A DNA stretch of 64,000 nucleotides, taken from IMG/VR virus record IMGVR_UViG_3300035698_035307, positions 87,521 through 151,520 of that record; one strand, 5' to 3'. Of the stretch, positions 11,701 to 61,598 are shown one piece after another. The notes under the pieces were generated by a model. It had not been told where the DNA came from, searched no databases, and was given only the letters and a program-made list of their open reading frames with translations. The translations under genes were made by a program, and so were the position numbers. The DNA comes from a virus. Taxonomy: Duplodnaviria > Heunggongvirae > Uroviricota > Caudoviricetes. How positions within the stretch are numbered: position 1 is the first letter of the stretch; each line of letters opens with the position of its first letter.

Positions 11701-12363
11701 TCTTATTCTTAATACGCTAAAGTTTCCAATATATCTTAACTTTCTTGGTGGAACATCTTGAGTTTCCTCATCAAGAACGAATGATATATTCTGAGCTAGC
11801 ATATCATTAAGGAATGTAGCATATACTATACCGTCTTTTCCTTTATATTTTTCATTAAAATATGAAAGCTTCTTCTCAGTATCAAGTGTTAAAAGATATC
11901 TCTTGGTTATGATTCTTTCTGTGTCTACTGGAATTTGACCTGTAACGTTGATTCCGATATAAAGAAGCGGGTTCATGAACTCTTCAAAAAACCAATTCGA
12001 TTTAGAATTAAATTCTGTCGGTACAGGTACTGCAGTAATAGTATTAGCTGCTGTCTTAAGTTTAGATGTTATCACCTTTCTATAAGTACCATCTGAAAGC
12101 CTAACATTTGTATCTGAATCGCCTGTTCCGGCAAGATTCTGAACGTTAGTATCAATTCTAGCTATCTCATTCTTTAAAAAACCAAAGCTTGGAATTTGAA
12201 TACGTACCAGGTTATTGTTCTGGTCAAACAGGTCTACATCAACTGTTTTCTTATTACTCGTAATTGCTTCATTAAGTTTGTTAAATGTTTCTAAGGCATT
12301 TGTCTCAAGCTTAAGGAACTGAGAAATTAAAGTTGATAATGAATTATTAGTGTTATTACTCAT
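8794..12363 (-). CDS. Large virion structural protein (1189 aa), baseplate or fibre-associated; contains an FN3-like SEWS segment.
   Basis: Long ORF. Contains ...AGFPANSKESEWSDSITVDFP... (FN3/Ig-like signature). Followed by a terminator. Confidence 0.55.
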   Translation of the reverse strand: MSNNTNNSLSTLISQFLKLETNALETFNKLNEAITSNKKTVDVDLFDQNNNLVRIQIPSFGFLKNEIARIDTNVQNLAGTGDSDTNVRLSDGTYRKVITSKLKTAANTITAVPVPTEFNSKSNWFFEEFMNPLLYIGINVTGQIPVDTERIITKRYLLTLDTEKKLSYFNEKYKGKDGIVYATFLNDMLAQNISFVLDEETQDVPPRKLRYIGNFSVLRIRNTATEAIVDGQTVSGRSQIYKLNKLTYTDLQSGFTDSISLKIGDSIIVNNDRKNTRYTVKSVDSTTNEVELVLVEGFDAVNIGSDVIGIYRGQDENIELEIPIGFDEQVAVFIKAVDPISKIPSELWSPGIAFYSNELEILKTDGQVQTLETYYKNEVADIGAILLGLAKDKIPPALYAATPNTPAVKAADFEVVQINKHLTDNDAFKEVQESNDEKNKVTAEIKESDVAIKKKRSVISTKKYDSTIEKQSDAKELESLIERRANSSKLYSSIVNNIVDKAKGNSLTGISAKYRVRGFWPIPEPKASKYTNPQEIVQFVVQYRYLSTTGKPNNTAQINFQDNSDVKRRGTFSNWIELRTKARERVKNEITGQFEWTVQNVENADDVNINQLDIPIKANESVEIRIKALSEAGFPANSKESEWSDSITVDFPDDKTQDNDLETIKEENNVELAKVQLLEELNSKGLDEHLSSSFTANEYYFAHDATKIASGFLSQEQKPINLFDKLVEFENRINYLQEIIDKVTGELVLKILDDTGAETLIENNSSNKFFAGYYVDEVKDRDIKKGSIVTKTYFITIENKVATPLEVISRMPGNRPSKLVSSSTLFGDTIDPSVTSDSYYTTYGRYDRVPMLYTNPNTLNIFTKDSPYQSGQRYGQYLYGRWFNVAGTEEFFLDTDDDYSTVITTMNQAEYSLSVTPYTAAPLSGPDNTSDYIWNGTYNGTKPNVTILGSYIPNTTYNDKILTHWLHPNVNDGLGNYTLTKGAVEFRNAKHAKLINSDVNGKKQCGYFYDPAAQFYNESGLLVTGRTVKTSFQPDDQYLLGGRSCGSYLFIAVQNEDSLSVNGNDALSSIKIAIGQNNAIQIPLVYQYRMSDFAGVGTDGLGFVAGDSTNATKDVTYAKKLGLDLKLIDDSMFKFDIELYAKYRSNNLNIDKIPRRDVRLAVEDLRQTLKGDVVPNITERPTKDVSGIK

Positions 12364-20654: not shown

Positions 20655-21470
20655 TTATGAGGTGAAGAAAAAGTCTACACCTTCGTCTTCTTTCATTTCT
20701 TCTGCTATTGCAGTTAATTCTTCTTGGCCAGCGTCTCTAATCATGTCACCATTTATAGTAACGTTACCAGGTAATTGATATCCAAACATCATAATTTGTG
20801 TACCTAACTGTACTTTAACTTTTGCAACTACATATCTGTGAAAAATTTCATCAGAATATAGAGCATAATCAGGAATAGTTTCGGAAACTTCTAATACAAC
20901 GCTTTTATCTTTCTTAGGTTTGTCACCTAATACTTTAAGTTTTTGTGAAAGTCTATCGTAATGATATGAAATTGGATTGTTGAAAATCTGTCGAGCTAAA
21001 TCATAATACTTCTGATTCACAACGTAGTACATTAATTCATCACCTTCAATTGAAGCATTAGAATAAACACTACCATAAATCCATTTCTGAACTGAGAAGT
21101 CAGCATCTGAAACACCACTTGAGATATTCATATCGTTTTGTTGTCTCAAACCATAAACTTGGTAAATCCAACCACTACCATCAGGCTGTGCACCAGGTAA
21201 TGAAATAGTTCTTGTCTTCTGAAATTCCTTTGTATTGAAAGCAGCATAAGGTAGAATATAATAGTTTTCTGCAACTGAATACTCGTATTTCTTATAGAAC
21301 CACTTCTTCGCGAGCTTTATAATACGTACTACTTCCTTCTTAGGCAAGTTCATAGGTATCATACATGCACCTGTTATTTCTTGTGCAACGTTTCTAACCA
21401 GCTCATCTAAAGCTTGTCCTGCTGATAAATGCCCAGTGTTTTCTTCTGGTCCTGTTCTAATATCGCTCAT
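20655..21470 (-). CDS. Baseplate-module hypothetical protein (271 aa).
   Basis: ORF overlapping the upstream gene by 14 nt. No motif recognised. Confidence 0.4.
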   Translation of the reverse strand: MSDIRTGPEENTGHLSAGQALDELVRNVAQEITGACMIPMNLPKKEVVRIIKLAKKWFYKKYEYSVAENYYILPYAAFNTKEFQKTRTISLPGAQPDGSGWIYQVYGLRQQNDMNISSGVSDADFSVQKWIYGSVYSNASIEGDELMYYVVNQKYYDLARQIFNNPISYHYDRLSQKLKVLGDKPKKDKSVVLEVSETIPDYALYSDEIFHRYVVAKVKVQLGTQIMMFGYQLPGNVTINGDMIRDAGQEELTAIAEEMKEDEGVDFFFTS

Positions 21471-22773
21471 TTGGATTATAATTTATTTTTTCGTATTCAA
21501 TAACTTCACATTTTATAAATCTAGCTAAGTCTGTAATTTTACCTTTTCTAAATATACCACCTTCCATTGTACCGTTCATAATACTATTATTCCCAGTTAC
21601 AAAACAATCTTTAAGGTAGCAACTTCTATTAATATATGAGTTATCTATTCTACAATTAAGTAGTTGACTATTATCAAACACGTTACATGTCCAAAGTTCT
21701 ACGTTATCAATTGAACTTTTAAATATATCACAGTTGAATAGTCTTCCTTTTACTACAGAATCTATAACATCAATTCCTTCTAACTTATAGTTATTTAAGA
21801 GCTTAGCATCTTTAATCTGTATCTTGCTTGTATCACTATCATAGTTGATTAAACCTTCTTCCATTTGACCTTCTGTAAGAAGTTCATATACTTTATTTTG
21901 TATTTTACCCCAATATAAATTGATTCTACGTATGTCTGTGTCTAAATCAACTAACAATCCAATTTTTGGAAAGTATTCTTTGAAGTTTTCAAATGAAATA
22001 TAAGCTTTGTTTACATGTTCATGTGTTTTAAGTATTCTCATTAACTCGACTTTATTGAGTTCATTGAATGTTCGTTCTTCTGCTGATTCAAATAGTGAAA
22101 TAGCGAAGTGGTCCCATGTCGTAAGAATCTCTGAAAGTTTCTGTTGATAATCTTTACCACCTAAATATCTAAATTCAAGATAATTCTTTTGAAGTTTCTC
22201 GAAGTTGATTCCATAATATTTTTCGAATGGAACTATAAAGTCATGTGAATTAATGTTCTCTGAACTATAGAACGACTGTTTCTGTACAGGTTCAACGAAC
22301 TTAATAGATTTAGCATAAACGTTATTCTTTCTTTCAGGCCAGTATTGATATACAAAGTCTTCATCAAAGTCTAAGATAAACTTAAGTGGGTTTAACCCTG
22401 TTAAAAAGTTTGCACCATATTTATCCTTATTGTAAGAAATGTTCAAATGTATTCCAGCTCTATCATTAGTATAACCGTTTTCATCTATCCACTTGCACAT
22501 CTTTATTAAAATAATTCTACCATCCGCATATTTAAGTGGGCCAGTAATCAACTCAAATAGAGCTGCACCACCAGAAAAATCTGGTTCCATCTTAAACGTT
22601 TTATCATCAGGAATAAAATCACTGTGAGCTTTTTCCTCTACATGTATCTTCTTACCTAATAATTCTTCTAAGCTACGCTTTGTTTCCGCTTCTTCAAGAT
22701 TTGAATAAAATTCAAATTCGAATCCAATATTGGAATTTAAAAGCACACTTGATTTTTTCGTATCTAATAACAT
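21457..22773 (-). CDS. Amidoligase-like protein (glutamine-synthetase-fold GxExE...ExR pattern) with a Cys-rich C-terminal region, 438 aa.
   Basis: N-terminal IGFEFEF (GxExE), GIHLNIS and LEFRYLGG (ExR) follow the order of motifs in the phage 'putative amidoligase' family. The C-terminal 90 aa carry seven Cys in NC/DC repeats. Functional call is tentative. Confidence 0.3.
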   Translation of the reverse strand: MLLDTKKSSVLLNSNIGFEFEFYSNLEEAETKRSLEELLGKKIHVEEKAHSDFIPDDKTFKMEPDFSGGAALFELITGPLKYADGRIILIKMCKWIDENGYTNDRAGIHLNISYNKDKYGANFLTGLNPLKFILDFDEDFVYQYWPERKNNVYAKSIKFVEPVQKQSFYSSENINSHDFIVPFEKYYGINFEKLQKNYLEFRYLGGKDYQQKLSEILTTWDHFAISLFESAEERTFNELNKVELMRILKTHEHVNKAYISFENFKEYFPKIGLLVDLDTDIRRINLYWGKIQNKVYELLTEGQMEEGLINYDSDTSKIQIKDAKLLNNYKLEGIDVIDSVVKGRLFNCDIFKSSIDNVELWTCNVFDNSQLLNCRIDNSYINRSCYLKDCFVTGNNSIMNGTMEGGIFRKGKITDLARFIKCEVIEYEKINYNPNERY

Positions 22774-22858: not shown

Positions 22859-24100
22859 TTATTTTGAAATTGTAAAGGTTATCTTCTTAGAAGACTTTTC
22901 AATTCTTGTAATTTTTACATTAATTTTATCACCTTCAGTTAATTCGACACCGTCGTATTCGCTAAAGTGAAGTAAGCCAGAGATTCCTTTTTCTAATTCT
23001 ACAAATGCACCGTATTCTTTGATAGTTAATACTTTACCTTCTACTGTAGATTGTACTTTGTACTTCTCATCGATATCATTCCAAGGGTTATTCTCAGGAG
23101 TCTGAGTTAAAATAATCTTGTTATTCTGAGCTACTTCTTTTACGTAGAACTCAATTACATCACCTGAATTAATATTCCTGTCTTGATGTAAATTATGATG
23201 AGATTTGTCAAGGTCTGATATGTGAATAAGACCTGTTAAGCATTTAGGCGCATCAGCTACTCCAAACTCGCAGAATACTCCGAATTTTGTTGTTCCTGTA
23301 ACAGTTCCTTTATACTTTTGTTTTGGATTTTGCTTAACATGTTCGATTGAACTTGGTATAAGCGTTTGTAAATAAGCTCTTGCTGATACTACAATTGTAC
23401 CTTTTTCAGGGCTAAAATTAACTGGCATTACAATTAATTCTTTACCTACATAATCTTCGAAGTTATCAATTTTGTTCATTGTAACTTGTGAACCTGGCAT
23501 AAAACAACCAATTCCATCAATCTCTACAATAAACCCACCTGAAATAAGTTCTCTAACTACTGCAGTGAAAGCACAAGACATATTGATTGAATCTTTTATC
23601 TCTTCTTCTTTCATTACTTTAATAGCTTCACTATATGATGCCATTATCGCATTGTTGTTCTCCTTATCGTTAGTAATCTTTACTCTGATAGCTTCACCTT
23701 GAACTATATTTTCAAGATAACGTTTTTCTTCCTTCTTCAACTCTAAGTAAGCATACTCTCTGTAGTTGATATCAAGAAACGCAGTAGTAGCATCAACTGA
23801 CACAACTAAAGCATCTACTGTCTCACCTTTTAGAGGAACTGCAAATCGCATATTCTCAGTGTTTTCAGTATACAGATGATATGCGTCTTGGGCATATTCT
23901 GCATGTGAATAAACTACTTCACCTGTTTTTGTTTTAATTGAGTTGTTGGAGTTAAGACCTGGTTTACTTGTTTTTTCAAATTCAGTCCAGTCAAATTCTT
24001 TGTGTTGGAGGGTTTTAGAATCTTGTTCGACTTTCTCGTCTAATTCTAATGTTGTTGTGCCGGGTTTTGTAAAAACCGTACTAATTTTACCTTTAATCAT
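22859..24100 (-). CDS. RNA-binding protein with tandem S1 domains (ribosomal protein S1-like), 413 aa.
   Basis: Repeated S1/OB signatures, for example ...GKVLTIKEYGAFVELEKGISGLLHFSE... and ...GTVTGTTKFGVFCEFGVADAPKCLTGLIHISDL...; at least three S1-like units. Confidence 0.7.
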   Translation of the reverse strand: MIKGKISTVFTKPGTTTLELDEKVEQDSKTLQHKEFDWTEFEKTSKPGLNSNNSIKTKTGEVVYSHAEYAQDAYHLYTENTENMRFAVPLKGETVDALVVSVDATTAFLDINYREYAYLELKKEEKRYLENIVQGEAIRVKITNDKENNNAIMASYSEAIKVMKEEEIKDSINMSCAFTAVVRELISGGFIVEIDGIGCFMPGSQVTMNKIDNFEDYVGKELIVMPVNFSPEKGTIVVSARAYLQTLIPSSIEHVKQNPKQKYKGTVTGTTKFGVFCEFGVADAPKCLTGLIHISDLDKSHHNLHQDRNINSGDVIEFYVKEVAQNNKIILTQTPENNPWNDIDEKYKVQSTVEGKVLTIKEYGAFVELEKGISGLLHFSEYDGVELTEGDKINVKITRIEKSSKKITFTISK

Positions 24101-32936: not shown

Positions 32937-33851
32937 TTATCCTTTGAGTGTTTTAAATCCTTTACCATTTACAATGAAAGATTTCTGACAACCGTTGTTT
33001 TTAATATAGTCATACCCATCGTTCCACCATTTTGTCATTTCTTCTTTATCAAAAACTAACCCGTAATTCTGTACTAATAAAGTAGGAGTATAATAGAAAT
33101 TAATTTTAACTTCTTTAAGGTCTGACTTTAATTGACCAATAAGAACATCACTCATTGAAATTTCTCTCTGCATAAGGTCAATAGTTCTCAACATTACATC
33201 GAACATATTATCTGGATTCCATTTATCTTCTTTATAAAATTCTGGCCTTAAGATGATTACATCGACTTCATCAGCACCATCATCAATAGCTTTCTGTAAA
33301 GGTACGTGTTCCATTACACCGCCATCTAAATAAAGTTCACCATATTTTCTAACAAAATCCATCGCTAAAGGTACACTCGTAGATGCAAGTGTATAATCAA
33401 TATAGTCTTCATATGTTTCATTGAAATTGTCATGAAATTCTACTTGACCTTTATGATAATTAGTAATACAGCAATGTAATTTCTTATTAGCTTTCTTAGT
33501 TGTTTGATAATCGACCGAACTGAACATATCGTAAAGCAGTTGGCGTAACTTACCCGATTCACCTAAAGACGTTTTCTTATTTAAGAATCTCCAAATAGCA
33601 TTCCAAATGCTAAGTTTTCCTTTCTTAGTGAATGGGTTAACCGAGAATATATTCTCAGTAGTCGCATTCGTATAAGACTCTTTTAATTTTTTCATCTCAT
33701 GTAGAGAAGTTAATGTAATAAGTAATGAACCTGTTGAACTACCGAAATATGAATCCCAATCGTATCCAAGTTCTTCTACCATATACTGTAAAGCTCCGCC
33801 GCCCCATGCGCCTTTTGCTCCACCTCCTGATATTACTAATGCTCTTTTCAT
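32937..33851 (-). CDS. Patatin-like phospholipase (304 aa).
   Basis: Oxyanion GGGAKGAWGGG near the N-terminus, nucleophile GSSTG (GxSxG) and a catalytic-dyad DGG (LYLDGGVMEHVP). This is the canonical patatin Ser-Asp dyad arrangement. Confidence 0.8.
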   Translation of the reverse strand: MKRALVISGGGAKGAWGGGALQYMVEELGYDWDSYFGSSTGSLLITLTSLHEMKKLKESYTNATTENIFSVNPFTKKGKLSIWNAIWRFLNKKTSLGESGKLRQLLYDMFSSVDYQTTKKANKKLHCCITNYHKGQVEFHDNFNETYEDYIDYTLASTSVPLAMDFVRKYGELYLDGGVMEHVPLQKAIDDGADEVDVIILRPEFYKEDKWNPDNMFDVMLRTIDLMQREISMSDVLIGQLKSDLKEVKINFYYTPTLLVQNYGLVFDKEEMTKWWNDGYDYIKNNGCQKSFIVNGKGFKTLKG

Positions 33852-49794: not shown

Positions 49795-50280
49795 TTAAGG
49801 TAGCCGTGGATTCTTCCACTTGATATCAGGTATGAATGATACTGTACTTTTTAATAATACGTAAATAAGTTCCCATTCTGTATTAGGATTGAAACCAGCT
49901 TTGTCTTCGAACATTACATCGAAATACGGTTTAAGTTTATAATAACCGAACATTCCATTCTCTTCGCAGATTTCTGGATTTTCGTTAAGATATTTAAAAT
50001 TGATACCGTCTTTCTTAAATAGTTCATCGTATCCTTTTAATTCTTCAGGATAAGAACTTGTAAATATTATCGTTCTAATATCTTGCCTATTAGTTAATAT
50101 TTGTAGGACTTCTTTTGCATATGGGTAATATACAACTTCGCAGTTACCTCTTCTATGATTAGGTTCTATTATTGTTCCGTGCAAGTCGAAGAGCCAAAAT
50201 GATTCATACCATTTATTCCGATGTTGCCTAGCCCATTGCTTTTGTATTACGTCTACTAACATATTATAACATATTTTCAA
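49795..50280 (-). CDS. HAD-like hydrolase / nucleotidase candidate (161 aa).
   Basis: N-terminal ...FWLFDLHGTII... resembles HAD motif I (DxDGT), but the second Asp is replaced by His. Sits in the nucleotide-metabolism neighbourhood. Weak call. Confidence 0.25.
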   Translation of the reverse strand: MKICYNMLVDVIQKQWARQHRNKWYESFWLFDLHGTIIEPNHRRGNCEVVYYPYAKEVLQILTNRQDIRTIIFTSSYPEELKGYDELFKKDGINFKYLNENPEICEENGMFGYYKLKPYFDVMFEDKAGFNPNTEWELIYVLLKSTVSFIPDIKWKNPRLP

Positions 50281-52212: not shown

Positions 52213-52905
52213 TTAGTTTGACATTTTATCCTTATATTTCCATTTATTATATCTCTTAACAACTTCAATCAGGATTTTATTTCTAACAATGTCACTTTCA
52301 TGAAATTCATGATTTGCAATACCTTTAACTCCTTCAAGCATAGTTATAAAATCAGGTAAACCAATTTCTTTAAATTTGATATCATATTGGCTCACATCAC
52401 CAGATACAATAACTTTAGTATCTTTACCCATTCTTGTTATAAAAAGCATTAATTGTTTAAATGTGCAATTTTGTGCTTCGTCTAATATCATTACGGCATT
52501 ATCAAATGTAGCTCCACGCATGTGAGCTAGTGGGCGATAATCTATCTGACTTACACTTTCTAAGAATCCTCTTGATTGCGTTCCACAAATTTTATCAAAA
52601 TTAGTTCTGAATGTGTCAATGAATGGTGCAATCTTCTCGGCTACTTCTCCAGGTAACGCACCAAGCTTCTCTCCAGATTCTTGGATAGGCTTTGTACAGA
52701 TAATCTTATTAATATTATTGTTCTTATCTGATAATAACTTTAAAGCTGTGTAAGCTGCTGTGAACGTTTTAGATGTTCCAGCTGGGCCAAAACAAAACGT
52801 AATATCGTTTTCCCATATTTTTTGTGAATAAGTTTTTTGTGTCTGTCTAAGCTGAACGTGTTTTATTTCGTCATACTTAATTTGAGGGCTTTCTTTCTTG
52901 CTCAT
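52213..52905 (-). CDS. phoH: PhoH-like ATPase (230 aa).
   Basis: Walker A CFGPAGTSKTFTA. Size and overall pattern match phage PhoH. Confidence 0.75.
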   Translation of the reverse strand: MSKKESPQIKYDEIKHVQLRQTQKTYSQKIWENDITFCFGPAGTSKTFTAAYTALKLLSDKNNNINKIICTKPIQESGEKLGALPGEVAEKIAPFIDTFRTNFDKICGTQSRGFLESVSQIDYRPLAHMRGATFDNAVMILDEAQNCTFKQLMLFITRMGKDTKVIVSGDVSQYDIKFKEIGLPDFITMLEGVKGIANHEFHESDIVRNKILIEVVKRYNKWKYKDKMSN

Positions 52906-53363
52906 TAGTCTCCGAATTCGATTATTTTTGTTTTAAGGTCTCTTAATACGGCACACTTCTCATAATCTTCTACTTCAATAAAATAGTTCATTATTCTGTC
53001 TATCGCCATACTGCGATGTCCTTTTCCTTTAGGTACTTCTATGACAGTATCACCATCTTCAAATATAATAAAGATATCTACTGTACGTTCTTCATTTCGA
53101 GTTAATGAATCATAAGAAGCATTCATCAAGTAATTCATGTCATGCTTAGGTAATTCTTCCTCGTCCATAAAATCATCTTTTTTTAACTCTCCATCCAGTT
53201 GTTTAGCATAAACGTCTCTTAGAATTTCATTTATTCTTCTGGGTCTTCTTTTATTTTCCATTTTATAAAATTTAAGATGCTGAATCTCCGAACATCTTTT
53301 GTTTATATACTGCTTTAATTTTTTGCTTTCTTTTTTTAGCTGATGGCTTTGTGAACTTTTCAC
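52905..53363 (-). CDS. Hypothetical protein (152 aa as drawn; more likely starts at the internal Met, about 53261, to avoid a 92-nt overlap with the bS21 gene).
   Basis: The ORF overlaps 53272..53469 in another frame. The internal start MENKRRPRR... would reduce the overlap to 10 nt. Confidence 0.35.
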   Translation of the reverse strand: MKSSQSHQLKKESKKLKQYINKRCSEIQHLKFYKMENKRRPRRINEILRDVYAKQLDGELKKDDFMDEEELPKHDMNYLMNASYDSLTRNEERTVDIFIIFEDGDTVIEVPKGKGHRSMAIDRIMNYFIEVEDYEKCAVLRDLKTKIIEFGD

Positions 53364-53469
53364 GTTCTCTAAGTTCCTTTACTTGCTTAGTCTTAATAAC
53401 CTTACGTTTAAATTGCTTTAGAGCTCTTTCGAGACCACCTTTGCCAGGTTCTACTATAATTTTTAACAT
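53272..53469 (-). CDS. rpsU: Ribosomal protein bS21 homologue (65 aa).
   Basis: MLKIIVEPGKGGLERALKQFKRKVIKTKQVKELREREKFTKPSAKKRKQKIKAVYKQ follows the bS21 pattern (ALRRFKR...REREFYEKPSxxRKRK...A). Confidence 0.7.
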   Translation of the reverse strand: MLKIIVEPGKGGLERALKQFKRKVIKTKQVKELREREKFTKPSAKKRKQKIKAVYKQKMFGDSAS

Positions 53470-54279
53470 TTAATCTACTTTAATTTTTTTATTTACGTAT
53501 ACCCTTAGTCTATCTAAAGCTTTACGTTCCTTATCATCGAACTTATGCATAATTACATTTATCACGATATAAAAATCACCAAATCTTTTGGTACCGAATA
53601 TTGGCATGCCTTTGTTTGGTACTCTAAGTTTCTGTCCTTGTTTTGTTCCCTCTGGGATTTTAACCTTTAACTTACCTGCAAGTGTTTCTACTTCAACTTC
53701 TATTCCTAATAGACTATCATACAATGATATTTCTACATTATAGAGTAAATCATGATTAATATTTTTGTAAAGGGGATTGTTTAAAACAACGATATGTATA
53801 AATGCATCACCAGGTGCAGCCATTTCATTAATAGTACTCTTAAATCCTTTTCCGCGAGCTCTGAAATTATGACCACTGTGTGTACCAGGTTTAATATCCA
53901 ATGAAAGAGTTTCACCTGTCGGTAACATAAATTCCTTTCTACACCCAGAATAAGCTTCTTTTAATGTAATTGCAAGATTGACACGAATACTTTCACCTTG
54001 AACTGGAATTTCATATTCACCATAGAACTGATTCCAAACGTCATGCATATTAGTACCTGTATGCCTGAATGGGTTCGGGTTGTCGTATGCTGTTCGTTTT
54101 TCTTTATTACTTAATACATTATAAGCTTCAGATACTTCCTTAAATTTCTCCTCAGACTGTTTATTATCTGGATTTTTATCAGGGTGTAATTTCTTAGCTA
54201 GCTTACGATAAGACTTTTTAATCTCGTCATCAGTTGCTGTACGTTCAACTTCTAATATCTTATAATAATCTTTATTCAT
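53470..54279 (-). CDS. DnaJ/CbpA-like J-domain co-chaperone (269 aa, no zinc-finger domain).
   Basis: J-domain: [35 protein letters not shown] (HPD motif). DnaJ C-terminal beta-domains follow; there is no CxxCxGxG repeat. Confidence 0.8.
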
Positions 54280-54556
54280 CTACTGCACTTAAATCGGCGT
54301 CCTTCTTTGTAGGATGGCCACCTTCGTTTGTTTTAATTTCTTTCTTTTCTTTTTCTTCTAACTTATCAAGTTCTTTAATGTCTTTGATTTTATCCTCATC
54401 GACCTTACCTGCTTTCTTAGTAAGCTTAGCTTCTTTCATCATCATCTTATTGCCTTTTTCAAGGCTATCTGCGATACGTCTTAATTCTTTAATCATTTCT
54501 GGGACATGTTTACCGTAGTACATTTGCCCTATGCCTGTTTTATGAAAATCTGTCAT
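54272..54556 (-). CDS. Small Lys/Glu-rich hypothetical protein (94 aa).
   Basis: ORF; overlaps the DnaJ start by 8 nt. Confidence 0.35.
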
Positions 54557-55050: not shown

Positions 55051-55413
55051 TTAATAGCGATGAGAATCACCACTACCTGATTTACGATTTTTGTTTAAAT
55101 ATTTTGATAGGCCTGATTCACCGTTAGCAAAATCTTGATAACTTGTAAAATCTCCTTCTTTTTCTTCTCTATCTGTAGGATGAACATATTTTATGTCCTT
55201 GTATGGATTTGGTTCTCCACCTTCTTCTTTAATCTTCTTTGCTAAATAATCATTGAACTGTTTAATACTTCCCCTGAAAAATCTAATATCTTCTAAGTCT
55301 TTATTTTCTTTAGATGCTGGAGTTTCAGCTTCTGCAGAAGTTTCAGATGGTAGATTCTCTCTACTATTCTCATATAAAAATTCATCAAATGTAAGTATGT
55401 TCTTAAATGTCAT
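55051..55413 (-). CDS. Hypothetical acidic protein (120 aa).
   Basis: ORF only. Confidence 0.35.
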   Translation of the reverse strand: MTFKNILTFDEFLYENSRENLPSETSAEAETPASKENKDLEDIRFFRGSIKQFNDYLAKKIKEEGGEPNPYKDIKYVHPTDREEKEGDFTSYQDFANGESGLSKYLNKNRKSGSGDSHRY

Positions 55414-55936
55414 TGAAGTTTTGGTAATTTTTTAGCTCAAAGCTTTCGTTAGATTTATATATCGCATCTAACATATCCAATAACTTCTGCATAGGACGTG
55501 AAGCTCGCTTCCTTGCTTCTTTAAATGTAATAAATCCAGCCCAGTCAATTTCAACTATACCTTCACTATTCGGTTTAAAAAATGACTTATCTATCACTTC
55601 TTTCTTTAAGCCTATTTCTTTTATATCATCGATCTCAACAATATAAAAAGTCAAATCTTTCTTACCATATTTATTAGCTGGGTACATGTACGTATACGGA
55701 CCAGAAGTGACTTGTGATTTTTTTATTTTAATTCCTATTTCTTCTTCTGTTTCTCTCATAGCCCCTTGCCATTGAGTTTCACCTGGGTCGATTAAACCTT
55801 TAGGAATACTATATGAACCATACCATTTACTGCCACCAGGATGACCCATCAAAATTTTGTCTCCCATTTTAATTACTATACCAGCTGAATGTTTCATATG
55901 TTTTAATTTTTTTATAATCGTGTAAGAGAATTTCAC
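55403..55936 (-). CDS. NUDIX hydrolase (177 aa as drawn; the true start is probably an internal Met).
   Basis: Nudix box GLIDPGETQWQGAMRETEEEIGI (Gx5Ex7REUxEExGU). The first 23 codons overlap the upstream ORF 55869..56261. Confidence 0.8.
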   Translation of the reverse strand: MKFSYTIIKKLKHMKHSAGIVIKMGDKILMGHPGGSKWYGSYSIPKGLIDPGETQWQGAMRETEEEIGIKIKKSQVTSGPYTYMYPANKYGKKDLTFYIVEIDDIKEIGLKKEVIDKSFFKPNSEGIVEIDWAGFITFKEARKRASRPMQKLLDMLDAIYKSNESFELKNYQNFNDI

Positions 55937-56542: not shown

Positions 56543-56575
56543 AAAAAAAACCGGAACTGATGTAGTCCCGGTTTT
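56543..56575 (-). terminator. Terminator-like hairpin after the flotillin gene.
   Basis: A8 (56543-56550), stem ccgg...ccgg extended as aaaaccgg / ccggtttt with a 13-nt loop, then a T-run. Bidirectional in form. Confidence 0.5.
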
Positions 56576-56594: not shown

Positions 56595-58187
56595 CTACTT
56601 ATCATCTTTCTTTTCGATTTTAGCTTTGGCTTCTTCGATTACTTTCTTAGCATCGATTTTACCTTCTACATTACCTTTTTCAGCAAGCTTCGCTCTTTCA
56701 CCAGCACCTTGCATGAATTGTGGCATCTCAGCTCCAGCTTGTTCGAACATCTCTTTTAATGGTGGTACCATTCCAAGTAGTCCTTGCATGAAGCCAGCTG
56801 TTGATGTTTGACCATCTGAACCGCTTCCAGAACCTGAGTCCCAAACTGTTACTTTATCAATCTTCACATTCTTGATTGCTTCTACTTGAATCTTGATTAA
56901 TTCTGGTAATTTATCTGCAATCATTAATTGTACCGCTTTGTCACTTGAACCAGCTGCTTGTACTAATCTATCAAAACCGTCTGCTTGTTTTGTAAGTATC
57001 TCATTGATACCTTTCGCTTCTGCTTCCATCATCGCGAACTTAGCATCAGCCTTACCTTGTGCTACTCTACGGATTGCTTCTGCTTCTGCTTCTGCATTGA
57101 TTTCAATTTCTTCCTTAGCAATTTGTGCTGGGATTACAGTATCTGCATACTGTGAGGCTTTATCTTTCTTCGCTCTTTGCTTTTCAGCTTCTTCCTGGGC
57201 AATATAAGATTCTTTGTTAGCTTCTGCTTTCTTAACATTGAAAGCTGCAACTGATTTTCTTTCAGCTTCTGCTTCAGCTACTTTTCTTGTAGCAGTAGTA
57301 TTTGCAATTGCGACTTGTGAAGCATTTTCACCTTCAATCGCTGTAGCATTCATAGATGCTGTTGCAACTCTTTTTCTTTGTTCAGCATCTGCTTCACCAA
57401 TTTCTGATTTAGATATTGCTTCTGCAACTTGAACACGCTTGTCTTGGTCAGCTGCTGCTTCTCCAATTTCTGCTGTAGCATGAGCTGCTGCTACTTCAGT
57501 TCTCTGTGATTTCTCAGCTGTTGCAACTCCAATTGCACCACTTCTGTTTTTATCTGCAACAGATACTTTCGCTTCGTTGATAGCTGCGGCTGAAGCTTCC
57601 TTACCAAGAGCATCAATATAACCAGACTCATCTGTTATATCTGTGATGTTTACGTTGATAAGCTTTAAACCAATCTTCTGTAATTCATCTTCTAAGTTTT
57701 GTTGAATATTTAATAAGAACTTATCACGGTCAGCGTTAATTTCTTCAATATCCATTGTTGCAATTACAAGTCTCATTTGACCGAAGATGATATCTTTTGC
57801 TAGACCAGCAATATCAGTTCTTGAAAGGCCAAGTAGTCGTTCTGCAGCGCTTTCTCTTACACCTTCTGATGCAGATACTGCTACTGTAAATGTAGATGGT
57901 ACATCAATACGAATATTCTGTTTTGAAAGTGCATTCGTTAGATTTACATCAATTGCAATTGGTTTTAAATCAAGAAATTCATAATCTTGAATAACAGGCC
58001 AAATAAACTGTGCGCCACCATGAACTACTTTCGCGGTTGCTGTTTCTCCTGAAGCCTTCTTCCCGGTTTTACCGTAAATAACCATCAGTTTGTCCGAAGG
58101 ACATCGTTTGTATCGTTTTACCATCGCTACGATAAAGGCAAATGCTGCAACTACTGCAACTCCAATAATAATTAAATTGTACATCAT
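56595..58187 (-). CDS. Flotillin-like SPFH/Band-7 protein (530 aa).
   Basis: N-terminal TM helix, SPFH domain, then long Ala/Glu-rich flotillin repeats (AEAEAERK..., EINAEAEAEAIRRVAQGKADAKF) and a C-terminal tail, like bacterial YqiK/FloT. Confidence 0.8.
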   Translation of the reverse strand: MMYNLIIIGVAVVAAFAFIVAMVKRYKRCPSDKLMVIYGKTGKKASGETATAKVVHGGAQFIWPVIQDYEFLDLKPIAIDVNLTNALSKQNIRIDVPSTFTVAVSASEGVRESAAERLLGLSRTDIAGLAKDIIFGQMRLVIATMDIEEINADRDKFLLNIQQNLEDELQKIGLKLINVNITDITDESGYIDALGKEASAAAINEAKVSVADKNRSGAIGVATAEKSQRTEVAAAHATAEIGEAAADQDKRVQVAEAISKSEIGEADAEQRKRVATASMNATAIEGENASQVAIANTTATRKVAEAEAERKSVAAFNVKKAEANKESYIAQEEAEKQRAKKDKASQYADTVIPAQIAKEEIEINAEAEAEAIRRVAQGKADAKFAMMEAEAKGINEILTKQADGFDRLVQAAGSSDKAVQLMIADKLPELIKIQVEAIKNVKIDKVTVWDSGSGSGSDGQTSTAGFMQGLLGMVPPLKEMFEQAGAEMPQFMQGAGERAKLAEKGNVEGKIDAKKVIEEAKAKIEKKDDK

Positions 58188-58242
58188 TGTTTTTAAAAAA
58201 TTAAGTTAAATTAAACATTTATAAATATTACTACTAAAAATT

Positions 58243-58821
58243 CTACTTTTGTTTCACAACCATTAGATGACCTCTAATGTCTGTTACTTCTACTGTTGCA
58301 CCTCTTGGTATAAATCCAGTATCTGATATTACATCAACTTCTCGAATTGCTCCACCATTAAGTACATTAGCTTTTCCTTTTCCACCTTCTTGAACTGCAA
58401 GGGTAACAGTACCAGTCTTACCAACTGAATGAATTAGTTTGGGACTGCGGTCAACTGCAAGCTTTTTCATACCATACATCAACATCGTCATCATAACTAC
58501 CATACTTAAACCTGCTAAGGTTGCCCATAGAGTAGTATATCCTAAACCAACATCTTGATTAATACATGCAATTCCAGTCCAACTGAACATTACAAAGAAA
58601 TTCATTAAGTTCTTAAATGAGAACCAACCGAACGAAGCTCCTGCATCTCCTTGTGCATTATCTACGTCAGCATCAAAATCTGTATCTGTGTCTAAATCAC
58701 CGTCACTATCTAATCCTAAGAATATCATCATGAACTGTATCAAAAATACTAGCGATGTGGGTATCGCTATAAACCAAAGCACCTTTTCAAATCCTGTTAG
58801 TGCATCAAAAAATTCCATCAT
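58243..58821 (-). CDS. NfeD-like membrane protein (partner of SPFH proteins), 192 aa.
   Basis: Multiple TM segments plus a C-terminal OB-fold signature ...GKTGTVTLAVQEGGKGKANVLNGGAIREVDVISDTGFIPRGATVEVTDIRGHLMVV... Gene order NfeD then flotillin is as in bacterial yuaF-floT and yqiJ-yqiK. Confidence 0.65.
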   Translation of the reverse strand: MMEFFDALTGFEKVLWFIAIPTSLVFLIQFMMIFLGLDSDGDLDTDTDFDADVDNAQGDAGASFGWFSFKNLMNFFVMFSWTGIACINQDVGLGYTTLWATLAGLSMVVMMTMLMYGMKKLAVDRSPKLIHSVGKTGTVTLAVQEGGKGKANVLNGGAIREVDVISDTGFIPRGATVEVTDIRGHLMVVKQK

Positions 58822-58886: not shown

Positions 58887-59939
58887 CTAAAATTCCCCAT
58901 CAATTATGTTCAGAAAGTTTTCTCTAATCAGTAAAGCGTTATTTGAACCTACTTTCTTAGTTATAAACTTCTGTTCCTTTTTATCAAGCTTCATAAAATC
59001 TTCTCTGTTATCTTTCATAAAATCTTCGATAACATCTTTGTTCATATTACCCATAAGCATACCAAAATCCTTATCTGTAATAGTTCCAATCTTAGAGATA
59101 ACATTCTTCAGCCTATTCTCTGTCACATGACTGTCCATGATATCAAACAGCCTCTGAACCTCTTCAGAAACAATAACTTCCTCTTTTGGAACTCTATCTT
59201 TCTTAGGCTTCTTTGCAACTTCTGCAAATAGTTCATTCTTGTTCTTAAGAATAACTCTACTACCTGACCACATAAAATCTGGTTGTACAGGAATAATTAC
59301 ATTACCTTCACAGATATTCTCTACATCAATTTCTGGTAGACCTAATCTAGCAGGTATTGTAGACTTGTAAGCATTCTCATAAGCTAGACATTCTTCTAGC
59401 GTTCCTCTGAATAGAGGTTTCGTTCTAAATATATTACCAGCATCACATAATGTCGCGAATGTATCATAATCTACAAGTTCGCCATTGATTTTAATATCAA
59501 ATGCGTAAATATGATTATCAGGTGAGTAAAATACGCCTTTCTGACATCTTACTGCATGTGGACTTTTTGCTACTTCTGGATGGGGGTAAGAACCGCCAAA
59601 GATTTCACCATAAATTGTAAGTGTCTCAAGCTCAGGAGCTTCTTCTCCTTGTAGTGCAAGTTGATTACGCATAAGAGTAATAATATTCCAGATTTTTTCA
59701 ATGCCTGCTTTATTAGCTTCCATTACTACACCTGAATTATTAAATCCTTTCGGGTCATCAACAAAACCAGAACGCTTACCAGCTTTTAATTCATTACCAT
59801 CAAACCAAAGTGAAAAATTAGAGCCGTGTATTTTCTCGGTCACAACCCATTCGCCACCAGATTTACCTTGTTCTGCAATCTGATTTAGGAACTTAGTCCT
59901 ATAACTGTTTTCTATACTTGAAAATTTTGTAAATTCCAT
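58887..59939 (-). CDS. RNA ligase 2 (T4 Rnl2 family), 350 aa.
   Basis: N-terminus MEFTKFSSIENSYRTKFLNQIAEQGKSGGEWVVTEKIHGSNFSL is near-colinear with T4 Rnl2 MFKKYSSLENHYNSKF...GGEWVAREKIHGTNFSL (KxHG motif I). The C-terminal ...NVISKIGTITDKDFG... matches the Rnl2 C-domain. Confidence 0.85.
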   Translation of the reverse strand: MEFTKFSSIENSYRTKFLNQIAEQGKSGGEWVVTEKIHGSNFSLWFDGNELKAGKRSGFVDDPKGFNNSGVVMEANKAGIEKIWNIITLMRNQLALQGEEAPELETLTIYGEIFGGSYPHPEVAKSPHAVRCQKGVFYSPDNHIYAFDIKINGELVDYDTFATLCDAGNIFRTKPLFRGTLEECLAYENAYKSTIPARLGLPEIDVENICEGNVIIPVQPDFMWSGSRVILKNKNELFAEVAKKPKKDRVPKEEVIVSEEVQRLFDIMDSHVTENRLKNVISKIGTITDKDFGMLMGNMNKDVIEDFMKDNREDFMKLDKKEQKFITKKVGSNNALLIRENFLNIIDGEF

Positions 59940-60727
59940 TATATTTCAAAAAATTTAGATGTGCTATACTCTGGAGTTTCTCCATAACCTGCATAACCCA
60001 TTTGATTACTAACTACTTTTGTTCCATTTATTTCTGCATCAATATTCCTATGTGTATGACCATAAATCCAATGACTGATATCAAAATCGTGAATCCAATC
60101 AAAAAGTTCTACTACAAATCCAGCGTTAATTGGACTACCTTTAAAATCAGGATGATTAACCATCTGAGTAGGAGCATGATGCGTAACTACTACATTCTTT
60201 TCTCCTTTATGTTCTTCGAGTGCATCGTGCAAAAATCCTCTTGCTTCAAGGTGTAGTTTATTATACCTCATAGAGGTCAAAGGTTTTGGGTATTTTTGAT
60301 ACTCTTCCCAATACTTAATTACCCTGAAGTCGTTTAATCCTTTTGTGACATTCGTTATGTCATTATAATTACTCAAAGAAGACCACAGTGTAGTACAGAT
60401 AAAATTAACACCTTCAAATTTTACTATATCATTGTTAACTAACAATACATTTTCCCTAATCTTTTTATTGAGTTTAGGCTCTTTCAATAATTTATAATCT
60501 GCGTTATAATATTCATGGTTGCCAGGTATCATTATTACTAATTTCCACTTTTCAGAGAAATAATCAAAAATCTGGTCACTGTAATGTGAATCATTCATTT
60601 TTGTGATATCACCAGCAAGAACAAGTACATCACCGACAGGGATGATAGGATTATCTGATATCTCATCTCTGTTGGTGTACATTTCTAAATGTAAGTCTGA
60701 CGCGTATTGTATTTTTAATTTTGCCAT
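59939..60727 (-). CDS. Calcineurin-like metallophosphoesterase (262 aa); candidate 2',3'/3'-phosphate end-healing phosphatase.
   Basis: MPP motifs: SDLHLE (DxH), LAGDITK (GD), GNHEYY (GNHE), GHTHRN (GHxH). Confidence 0.75.
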   Translation of the reverse strand: MAKLKIQYASDLHLEMYTNRDEISDNPIIPVGDVLVLAGDITKMNDSHYSDQIFDYFSEKWKLVIMIPGNHEYYNADYKLLKEPKLNKKIRENVLLVNNDIVKFEGVNFICTTLWSSLSNYNDITNVTKGLNDFRVIKYWEEYQKYPKPLTSMRYNKLHLEARGFLHDALEEHKGEKNVVVTHHAPTQMVNHPDFKGSPINAGFVVELFDWIHDFDISHWIYGHTHRNIDAEINGTKVVSNQMGYAGYGETPEYSTSKFFEI

Positions 60728-60764
60728 AGTCTAATATACTAATTCTTTTTCAGAACCCAAAGTT

Positions 60765-61598
60765 TTAGGGCATTAAATTTAATAAAAAGTCTCTATCTTG
60801 AGATATGATAGGAATATCTACTGTTTCCCAAGCTGAACGTGTTATGCCAGTTGCTCTTGCAGAAATATCACCAGATGACATCATATCATAACTCTGTACA
60901 ACAACGTTGTCAACTCTTGTAATCTTCTTCACAAAACCACCACGTTTGAAACGTATTGGCTCATCATTCCAGTTAATTTTCTTTTCAAGCATTAACATAT
61001 CCTGCATGTCATTTGTCTTCTTGCCGTGTAATTCATTTTGGCTGAAGTACGCTTGAGCTAACATACTAATACTATTCCTTGTTGCATCTTGTTGTCTCCA
61101 AAGAAAATAGTTTACAACTTCTTCTTGGTTTGGAATTACAAATACTCTTGCATCAAATTCCGCAACTCTCATTGTACTTAATACTTTTGAGATATCAGTA
61201 CCGGGTTCTTGATTCCCTATAGCTCTAATATAGCGTAGTTGATTAAACTTACTCGTTGCCATAGAAGCAGCTACTGATACCATCTTTTGGATTTTATTAC
61301 CAAACCAAGCATCTGTCTCTAGCTTATCGTAGTCTGTTAATAGAAGTGATATTTCATCACTCTGAACATAACCACATTTACAGCCCTGAATATTCTTACA
61401 AAGATATTGAGTTGTTGCATCCATGTCATCATTTAATCCAGTATCATACGGTTTTTTAAGGCCACGAGTGTACGTGTGAAATGCCTTACCGTCAAGTCTG
61501 ATGATAATGTTTGTTCTGCGGGGCATAGTATGGTTAAATATACCTTCATAGAATGTTTTCATTCTGTCCCCTAAAGCGTCTTTTACTTTTTTTGCCAT
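60765..61598 (-). CDS. Thg1-like protein (tRNA-His guanylyltransferase family; 3'-5' nucleotidyltransferase), 277 aa.
   Basis: ...DRMKTFYEG...NIIIRLDGKAFHTYTRGLKKPYD...GYVQSDEISLLL...KMVSVAASMATSKF...FDARVFVIPNQEEVVNYFLWRQQD... is colinear with the Thg1 signatures VVVRLDGRNFHRF...KPND, GQSDEYSFVF, FDGRVVVYPS...YLSWRQAD. Confidence 0.7.
   Translation of the reverse strand: MAKKVKDALGDRMKTFYEGIFNHTMPRRTNIIIRLDGKAFHTYTRGLKKPYDTGLNDDMDATTQYLCKNIQGCKCGYVQSDEISLLLTDYDKLETDAWFGNKIQKMVSVAASMATSKFNQLRYIRAIGNQEPGTDISKVLSTMRVAEFDARVFVIPNQEEVVNYFLWRQQDATRNSISMLAQAYFSQNELHGKKTNDMQDMLMLEKKINWNDEPIRFKRGGFVKKITRVDNVVVQSYDMMSSGDISARATGITRSAWETVDIPIISQDRDFLLNLMP

Follow-up and report, generated by a model that had tools for sequence, protein, structure and literature searches.

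Of the ribosomal proteins carried by viruses, phage-encoded bS21 is the most common. Here, we describe such a gene, rpsU, and its neighbors on a stretch of 64,000 nucleotides (nt) of a Caudoviricetes record in IMG/VR (IMGVR_UViG_3300035698_035307, positions 87,521 to 151,520), which we refer to in its entirety as the window. All of its approximately 52 genes lie on the minus strand, and all positions given below are those of the window. At the locus itself, we distinguish the following features, in which protein lengths are given in amino acids (aa) and ORF stands for open reading frame:

53272..53469, minus strand: phage rpsU, ribosomal protein bS21, 65 aa, ATG start (PF01165, TIGR00030, PHROG 21469, PDB alignments)
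53470..54279, minus strand: J-domain co-chaperone (DnaJ), 269 aa (PF00226, 98 bits; PF01556, 123 bits)
54272..54556, minus strand: lysine/glutamate-rich protein, 94 aa (ORF list; 94-aa gene calls in contigs L001, L004 and L005)
52905..53261, minus strand: conserved small EYEKC-motif protein, 118 aa, the predicted true extent of a '152-aa ORF' (gene calls, homologs)
53262..53363, minus strand: spurious 5' extension of the 152-aa ORF (GTG at 53363), predicted to be non-coding (out-of-frame reading of bS21)
52213..52905, minus strand: PhoH-like ATPase, 230 aa, last member of a conserved block (PF02562, 182 bits; PHROG 170)
56547..56575, minus strand: best intrinsic-terminator candidate upstream of the bS21 string (12-bp stem, then a T run)

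The full product of the bS21 gene is MLKIIVEPGKGGLERALKQFKRKVIKTKQVKELREREKFTKPSAKKRKQKIKAVYKQKMFGDSAS, and its core, …ERALKQFKRK…ELREREKFTKPSAKKRKQKIKAVYKQK…, is found in the ORF list as it had been quoted in a preliminary description made from the sequence alone. There, the product had been named bS21 on the basis of this pattern and a J-domain chaperone had been placed beside it; both identifications held up. The protein matches PF01165 with 50 bits against a cut-off of 27 (E = 2.5e-13), over residues 6–57 of 65 and profile positions 2–54 of 55, and it also exceeds the curated cut-off of the NCBIfam model TIGR00030 (39.5 against 28.95 bits); the alignment to bS21 families, which had been suggested as a check, was therefore far from poor. 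Likewise, it matches PHROG 21469, ‘ribosomal protein S21’ (E = 2e-7). With 65 aa, it lies within the size range of the family (about 55–75 aa); it is strongly basic (by count, 22 K/R and 6 D/E residues), has no N-terminal extension and contains the core ALK-x-FKRK … ELR-x-R-x-x-F/Y-x-KPS-x-x-KR, which aligns with the bS21 chains in the PDB. By these matches, which go far beyond chance, the 65-aa product is a member of the bS21 family.

Among solved structures, the best matches of the protein are 9i5v (E = 1.5e-10) and, next, the Flavobacterium johnsoniae 70S ribosome 7jil (E = 5.8e-9), with the bS21 chains of 5myj, 7qv1 and 5nd8 ranking lower (E ~1e-6 to 1e-5). Those bS21 sequences that have been deposited many times in the PDB, and which we take to be from Escherichia coli, reach only E ~1e-3 to 1e-2. 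The bS21 of Bacteroidetes is marked by a signature tyrosine, Tyr54, which stacks on A1534 at the point of entry of the 16S 3' tail into the pocket concealing the anti-Shine-Dalgarno sequence, and by a C-terminal part of much weaker basic character than in other phyla (Jha et al., 2020; PMC7797042). HMMER pairs Tyr55 of the window protein with F. johnsoniae Tyr54. Among the sequences that we aligned, a tyrosine occupies this position in all 34 genomic and PDB sequences as well as in 13 of the 62 phage-context sequences, that of the window included. The tail behind Tyr55, KQKMFGDSAS, has a net charge of +1; the E. coli tail past the aligned position is HAKKLARENARRTRLY. Furthermore, in its best tblastn segments the window protein shares 53–65% identity with genomic Bacteroidota bS21, and both have the same KAVYKQKM motif, tyrosine included, at the C-terminus.

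A scan of GTDB, with one genome per species, pointed in the same direction: 54 of the 55 loci matching bS21 carry Bacteroidota labels (Saprospiraceae, Lewinellaceae, Bacteroidales, Crocinitomicaceae, Flavobacterium and others), an outcome that is one-sided even though the scan was seeded with query peptides and is hence a biased survey. The sole exception, L047 (CALRIU020000011.1), is a contig of a metagenome-assembled genome (MAG) labeled Hydrocarboniphaga daqingensis (Gammaproteobacteria) and carries a Bacteroidota-type rpsU; its DNA upstream of rpsU is identical to that of the Flavobacterium MAG locus L038, and the contig is probably mis-binned or a contaminant, judging from this identity. 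By structure matches, signature residue and survey alike, the bS21 of the window is of the Bacteroidota type.

That the gene is borne by a phage, as had been claimed at the outset, is evident from its surroundings. The window contains PHROG matches to a baseplate wedge protein (E = 2e-24), a baseplate protein/hub, a head-tail adaptor-like protein and phage-only families with up to 540 bits, together with a further protein of the structural region:

8794..12363, minus strand: 1189-aa structural-region protein, common to jumbo and huge phages

This protein is 43% identical to a protein of the uncultured huge phage LR756500 (462 kb) and 24–33% identical to proteins of the Tenacibaculum phages PTm1, PTm5 and pT24, the Chryseobacterium phages MA9V-1 and MA9V-2, the Flavobacterium phage MaF61, the Sphingomonas phage PAU and the Prevotella Lak phages. 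Neither a tRNA gene nor a terminase gene was recognized in the 64-kb window, and the window ORFs scanned hold no ribosomal-protein gene besides bS21 and a bS1 homolog described below. The GC content is 33.1%. A Shine-Dalgarno (SD) core is present at positions -20 to -4 in just 2 of the 52 genes, compared with 4.5±2.1 at random positions, and the regions upstream of the starts are 55–65% A, position -3 included; published abstracts describe such A-rich, SD-less leaders as the Bacteroidia style of initiation region. As for start codons, 48 of the 52 genes use ATG and two use GTG.

Taken from these sequence comparisons, the window is best described as part of a myovirus-like large phage infecting Bacteroidota, a host assignment supported by three independent lines. 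The preliminary description had drawn on bS21 for this assignment, and the matches to 9i5v and F. johnsoniae, the 54 of 55 Bacteroidota loci, Tyr55, the scarcity of SD cores and the cultured relatives that infect Bacteroidota all agree with it. For an otherwise unclassified large phage, bS21 serves as a clean host marker.

A phylogeny to tell a phage clade from a host-derived copy had likewise been suggested. A protein identical to the window bS21 recurs on short contigs from metagenomes, on which the genes follow the same order. The next relatives are 45–65% identical and have a phage-like context on every contig examined: some are accompanied by genes for DNA polymerase, GroES/GroEL, Hsp20, PD-(D/E)XK nuclease or a clamp-loader-like protein, others by extended series of small unknown ORFs. 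When the 6 kb surrounding bS21 were compared with phage records by blastn, only short matches of 67–79% identity resulted. In a neighbor-joining tree, phage-context bS21 sequences group together and apart from genomic Bacteroidota bS21, and the window protein groups with those of contigs L065 and L068. The support is weak, with bootstrap values, computed on a reduced sequence set, of 31% for the phage-context group and 44% for the window with L065 and L068; such weakness is to be expected from the 65 residues that bS21 offers as columns.

The two sets also differ in individual residues. Position 19 is Q in phage-context and K in genomic sequences, position 25 is R/K/I against E/D, position 28 Q/K/R against G, position 35 E against S/N/A and position 45 K against T, and the window protein has the phage state at all five (K28 at position 28); since both sets were retrieved by word or peptide seeds from the query, these ‘phage-typical’ residues carry an ascertainment bias. 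A large marine subgroup of the phage-context sequences (P0012–P0060, for example L070 6001..6189; 61–62 aa; many from Tara contigs), to which the window does not belong, has an arginine instead of the signature Tyr55, and its genes adjoin those of a clamp-loader-like AAA protein and GroES/GroEL.

Downstream of bS21, the gene model required correction. As the preliminary description had it, a 152-aa ORF with a GTG start (52905..53363) overlaps bS21 in another frame, and the ORF list confirms the 92 shared nucleotides (53272..53363). An internal methionine at about 53261 had been put forward as the better start, and this proposal is borne out. Met35 of the ORF is encoded by the ATG at 53261..53259, 10 nt past the bS21 stop codon, and 118-aa gene calls with this ATG start are recorded on five identical contigs from three sources (ENA, JGI and Logan). 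Homologs of 120–122 aa start at the aligned methionine, and none of the seven homologs has the 34-residue extension. In L065 and L068/L069, bS21 and the homolog of the 118-aa protein are separated by a UvdE gene of 299 aa, so that an extension into bS21 is impossible in L065 and L068; in L074, L087 and L089, the homologs in the same position comprise only 86–108 aa. The extension itself (MKSSQSHQLKKESKK…) arises when the lysine-rich 3' end of bS21 is read in the wrong frame, and the Pfam match of bS21 reaches down to about 53299, inside the extension.

Genuinely overlapping genes, sharing 92 nt in different frames, would be conceivable in that the GTG-initiated ORF is open and phages do have overlapping genes. 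Given the uniform gene calls, the N-termini aligning at the methionine, the intervening UvdE gene, the short homologs and the rarity of GTG starts in the window, we give this idea next to no credence. On the strength of the gene calls and homologs, ATG 53261 is the true start and the protein has 118 aa, not 152; the longer ORF is a longest-ORF artifact. Two further artifacts of this kind were noticed nearby: independent calls give the Nudix gene at 55403..55936 (minus strand) 164 aa, starting at about 55897 and not at GTG 55936, and the TTG-start ORF at 49795..50280 (minus strand), which overlaps LigA, 155 aa, starting at about 50262.

The 118-aa protein features an invariant C-terminal helix, …E-D-Y-E-K-C-x-x-L-R-D…, which reads E-[DE]-Y-E-K-C across homologs. 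It matches no Pfam, NCBIfam or PHROG family; lenient Pfam scans of its seven homologs gave nothing significant, with a UVR motif in one member only (E = 0.0045), and an IMG/VR scan with the protein returned only short matches to the C-terminal motif. An AlphaFold2 model from the seven-sequence alignment has a mean predicted local distance difference test (pLDDT) score of 58, which is too low for a fold search.

Upstream, the stop codon of DnaJ abuts the start of bS21 (TAAATG), so that bS21 may be translationally coupled to DnaJ. The J domain (PF00226) spans DnaJ residues 4–66 and contains the HPD tripeptide at residues 32–34, as do all five syntenic homologs, and the C-terminal domain (PF01556) covers residues 98–243. 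Residues 2–254 align with the ‘Chaperone protein DnaJ 2’ chain of PDB 4j80, which is practically a full-length alignment. The protein has a single cysteine and hence no zinc finger (CxxCxGxG), and its scores with the NCBIfam equivalog models of DnaJ and CbpA fall far short of the cut-offs. By its domain composition, it is a predicted class B-like (DnaJ2/CbpA-like) co-chaperone without zinc finger. Like Thermus thermophilus DnaJ2 and E. coli CbpA, it combines a J domain with HPD and two C-terminal beta-domains; unlike them, it is phage-encoded and has a very short linker in place of a clear G/F region.

The gene of the 94-aa protein, for which the Pfam scan gave just a weak, sub-cut-off DUF4290 match, overlaps the start of DnaJ by 8 nt and runs in the same direction, and the stop of the 118-aa gene overlaps the start of PhoH (TAATG). 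From this co-directional and tight packing, bS21 is probably co-transcribed with the 94-aa protein, DnaJ, the 118-aa protein and PhoH. The terminator candidate at 56547..56575, the one transcription signal that could be put to use, probably marks the start of a transcription unit running from 56494 to 52213, and there is no minus-strand terminator of like strength between it and the end of PhoH. For the Bacteroidetes-type -7 motif TAnnTTTG, 2 of 40 coding-strand sites are intergenic, compared with 9.4% intergenic sequence; given this lack of enrichment, we assign no promoter. A sigma-70 promoter scan stayed below shuffle expectation.

The gene order around bS21 recurs elsewhere. DnaJ, zero or one small ORF, bS21, in two lineages UvdE, then the EYEKC-motif protein and PhoH follow one another in six divergent phage contig groups: the window with its identical contigs, L065, L068/L069, L074/L075, L087/L088 and L089/L090. 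PhoH is in the same position in L065, L074, L087 and L089; the gene at this position in L068/L069 has no recorded Pfam hit and no BLASTP match to the window PhoH. Across the groups, the lowest identities to the window are 31% for DnaJ, 45% for bS21 and 53% for PhoH, and the genes outside the block vary, with LigA in some groups and RNase HII, acetyltransferase or Fapy glycosylase in others. At the junction of DnaJ and bS21, the window reads TAAATG and L065 reads TAATG; in L068, the junction measures 8 nt. More distant lineages have extra EYEKC paralogs between DnaJ and bS21.

Several details of these contigs deserve mention in their own right. Up to three E-[ED]-[YF]-E-K-C paralogs lie within 3 kb of bS21 (L074 at 197, 2193 and 2769; L087 at 917, 2316 and 2874; L089 at 773, 3528 and 4109), and the motif is weakly UVR-like in one member only. 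UvdE, a UV-damage endonuclease (L065 9082..9981; L068 6534..7433), is absent from the window. Directly after its ligase gene, L068 contains a 93-aa ORF (10523..10804) with a Cas12f1-like/TnpB zinc-ribbon domain (PF07282), which may be the remnant of a TnpB-type element.

In other phage lineages with bS21, GroES/GroEL lie one to eight genes away from it, and still others have no chaperone nearby; Hsp20 and Clp genes are among the common neighbors of bS21 (Chen et al., 2022; PMC9723584). A literature text search for bS21, DnaJ and phage returned nothing on phage bS21, judged by title and abstract. The pairing of DnaJ and bS21 is a modest new observation from gene order, and shared ancestry can explain it. 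One could imagine the block as a ribosome-remodeling cassette, in which the J-protein would bring the DnaK of the host to the 30S platform, so that host bS21 would be evicted or phage bS21 loaded. It would fill the role of the ‘exchange factor’ whose need in bS21 phages has been speculated upon (McNutt et al., 2023; PMC9976891), and DnaK/DnaJ are known to assist late 30S assembly in E. coli (PMC3061059). The conservation of the block in six divergent groups, while the surrounding genes change, agrees with this idea, as does the placement of GroES/GroEL beside bS21 in other phage lineages; a shared ancestry of an early-gene region would explain the synteny equally well, and we consider the cassette improbable. 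If the pairing does reflect function, it would point to a chaperone-assisted exchange of a ribosomal protein, which could be tested in the F. johnsoniae system.

Further away, among the baseplate genes, the window encodes a homolog of another 30S protein:

22859..24100, minus strand: ribosomal protein bS1 homolog, 413 aa (PF00575, 90 bits, two stretches)

Its residues ~90–411 align with S1 domains 1 to ~4, and the N-terminal ~90 aa are unique. It matches the NCBIfam rpsA models with E-values of 1e-45 to 1e-55, below the full-length equivalog cut-offs, residues 21–310 of E. coli bS1 (E = 5e-41) and residues 43–334 of 9zcd chain A. S1-domain proteins have been reported in huge phages along with missing SD sites (Al-Shayeb et al., 2020; PMC7162821). 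By homology, the window phage carries relatives of two 30S platform/initiation proteins, bS21 and bS1, of which the latter is a second candidate gene for a take-over of translation initiation.

Other genes of the window are remarkable for different reasons. A probable tRNA-repair set at 58887..61598 (minus strand) consists of an Rnl2-type RNA ligase (58887..59939), a metallophosphoesterase (59939..60727) and a Thg1-like tRNA-His guanylyltransferase (60765..61598), and this trio is also found in L065. At 56595..58821 (minus strand), a Band_7/flotillin-like protein (530 aa) is preceded by an NfeD-like protein (192 aa), a membrane-scaffold pair that one would not usually find in a phage and that is likewise conserved in the contigs L065 and L068. 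The structural-gene region also holds a patatin-like phospholipase (32937..33851, minus strand) and an Amidoligase_2-domain protein (21457..22773, minus strand).

Given all this, we think it very probable that the gene is a genuine phage rpsU, encoding a Bacteroidota-type bS21 in a large, myovirus-like Bacteroidota phage. The most likely mechanism is the one envisaged in published work on other phage bS21 proteins. The protein would be made during infection and take the place of the late-binding, exchangeable host bS21 on the 30S platform. Tyr55 would keep stacking on A1534, leaving the anti-SD tail sequestered, which would fit a phage whose mRNAs have A-rich, SD-less leaders. The phage-typical residues in the region of the first helix (Q19, the non-acidic residue 25, K28, E35 and K45) could then bias the selection of start sites or mRNAs toward phage transcripts (Chen et al., 2022; PMC9723584) or, as an alternative last step, the protein might simply keep ribosomes fully equipped. 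Phage bS21 has been found to enter E. coli ribosomes (Mizuno et al., 2019; PMC6375957), and the loss of bS21 or a Y54A exchange alters SD recognition in F. johnsoniae (McNutt et al., 2023; PMC9976891). As bS21 hides the anti-SD tail in Bacteroidia, a phage could plausibly influence the choice of start sites with a copy of its own. Furthermore, autoregulation of rpsU in F. johnsoniae relies on an extended SD before the gene (McNutt et al., 2023; PMC9976891). The window bS21 has no SD core in front of it (AAATAAAAAAATTAAAGTAGATTAA-ATG) and, lacking an extended SD, would escape this host control. Among the bacterial rpsU MAG loci retrieved, almost none has an extended SD within 30 nt, which makes this comparison uninformative.

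Several points weigh against this explanation: the low bootstrap values and the biased retrieval of the compared sequences; the gene context, which differs from that of the best-studied relatives as detailed below; and the finding that E. coli ribosomes with pelagiphage bS21 are nearly inactive in vitro (Mizuno et al., 2019; PMC6375957), so that incorporation need not mean enhanced translation. Moreover, expression, ribosome incorporation and any effect on selectivity are inferred from published work on other phage bS21 proteins, and in its wording that the gene ‘implies ribosome modification’, the preliminary description overreached. The phage protein could instead equal its host counterpart and top up a limiting or unstable protein at host shut-off, so that ribosomes would stay complete and SD-blind, a matter of supply and not of selectivity. 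Its identity to genomic bS21, the unchanged KAVYKQKM motif with its tyrosine and the SD-less leaders of the phage itself would fit this, as would the observations that bS21 is essential in F. johnsoniae and that ribosomes without it initiate poorly on SD-less mRNAs (PMC9976891). The differences at positions 19, 25, 28, 35 and 45, however, are common to distant phage lineages, albeit in a biased sample, and suggest that the gene is not just a neutral copy; Chen et al. (PMC9723584) describe comparable positions of divergence close to the mRNA side. We regard a pure supply function as possible, though rather unlikely.

A role off the ribosome, in which the protein would bind RNA or act as a regulator in free form, for example on phage mRNAs or within a different ribonucleoprotein (RNP), would be in keeping with its very basic character and with the published proposal that bS21 belongs to an RNP other than the ribosome, the OLE complex (PMC12054373). 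It seems very unlikely to us in view of the full-length match to a ribosomal family, down to the 16S-contacting tyrosine, and of the phage bS21 that does enter ribosomes (PMC6375957). Finally, the host's own rpsU on a bacterial chromosome segment or a mis-assembled contig would likewise resemble genomic Bacteroidota bS21, and DnaJ, PhoH, LigA and Nudix genes occur in bacteria, too. There is hardly any chance of this, considering the baseplate and adaptor PHROGs, the phage-only families, the 1189-aa protein shared with Bacteroidota, Lak and huge phages, some 52 genes on a single strand, the lack of tRNA genes, a bS1 homolog as the only other ribosomal-protein gene among the scanned ORFs, and a DnaJ–bS21 block that is found in phage-like contigs only. 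The candidates rejected are thus the host chromosome, a genuine overlapping gene pair and, on context, membership in the clades of Chen et al.

We return to the preferred reading, a phage rpsU of Bacteroidota type, for a comparison with known systems. Phage bS21 is well documented (Mizuno et al., 2019; Al-Shayeb et al., 2020; Chen et al., 2022), and ~900 to 1300 bS21-encoding phage sequences have already been analyzed (PMC9723584, PMC6375957); the window bS21 is a clean but ordinary further example that adds no new principle. Only the DnaJ–bS21–EYEKC–PhoH block and the accompanying bS1 homolog add to the literature searched. The Pelagibacter phage HTVC008M, also a large myovirus, encodes the only phage bS21 with experimentally demonstrated ribosome incorporation (PMC6375957); unlike that of the window, it derives from an alphaproteobacterial host, and tblastn with the window bS21 did not detect it at E<=1e-3. 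Huge phages combine bS21 with an S1-domain protein and lack recognizable SD sites (Al-Shayeb et al., 2020; PMC7162821), as does the window phage. The huge-phage records LR756501-04 carry a bS21 that is 47–49% identical to that of the window, which is without the N-terminal basic/aromatic extension noted for many huge-phage bS21 proteins; in the closest huge phage, LR756500, tblastn gave no bS21 match to the window query at E<=1e-3. Cellular Bacteroidia bS21, as in F. johnsoniae (7jil), shares with the window protein the length class, the conserved core, the A1534-stacking tyrosine and the weakly basic C-terminus; the window gene differs in being phage-borne, in lacking the extended SD and in its substitutions at positions 19, 25, 28, 35 and 45.

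The closest parallel is provided by the freshwater Bacteroidetes myoviruses of Chen et al. (2022; PMC9723584). These are likewise large and AT-rich (31–34% GC) with predicted Bacteroidetes hosts, and their genomes hold baseplate, PhoH and chaperone genes. As in the window, their bS21 is nearest to that of Bacteroidetes yet clusters apart, keeps an aromatic residue at position 54 and has divergent residues around positions 21–28; the role proposed for it is substitution into host ribosomes. It is highly transcribed late (Chen et al., 2022; PMC9723584). In clades a–e, however, bS21 lies on the reverse strand inside the module of TerL, portal, prohead protease and major capsid protein, adjoined by a co-transcribed hypothetical gene on the other strand, whereas the window bS21 is co-directional with all of its neighbors (DnaJ, the 118-aa protein, PhoH, LigA and Nudix), with no capsid or terminase gene recognized among the genes scanned within about 10 genes of it. 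Because of this different context, the late-stage timing cannot be transferred to the window phage. Instead, the window represents a second genomic context for Bacteroidota-phage bS21, beside DnaJ and PhoH and not in the capsid module, in a phage that also has a bS1 homolog.

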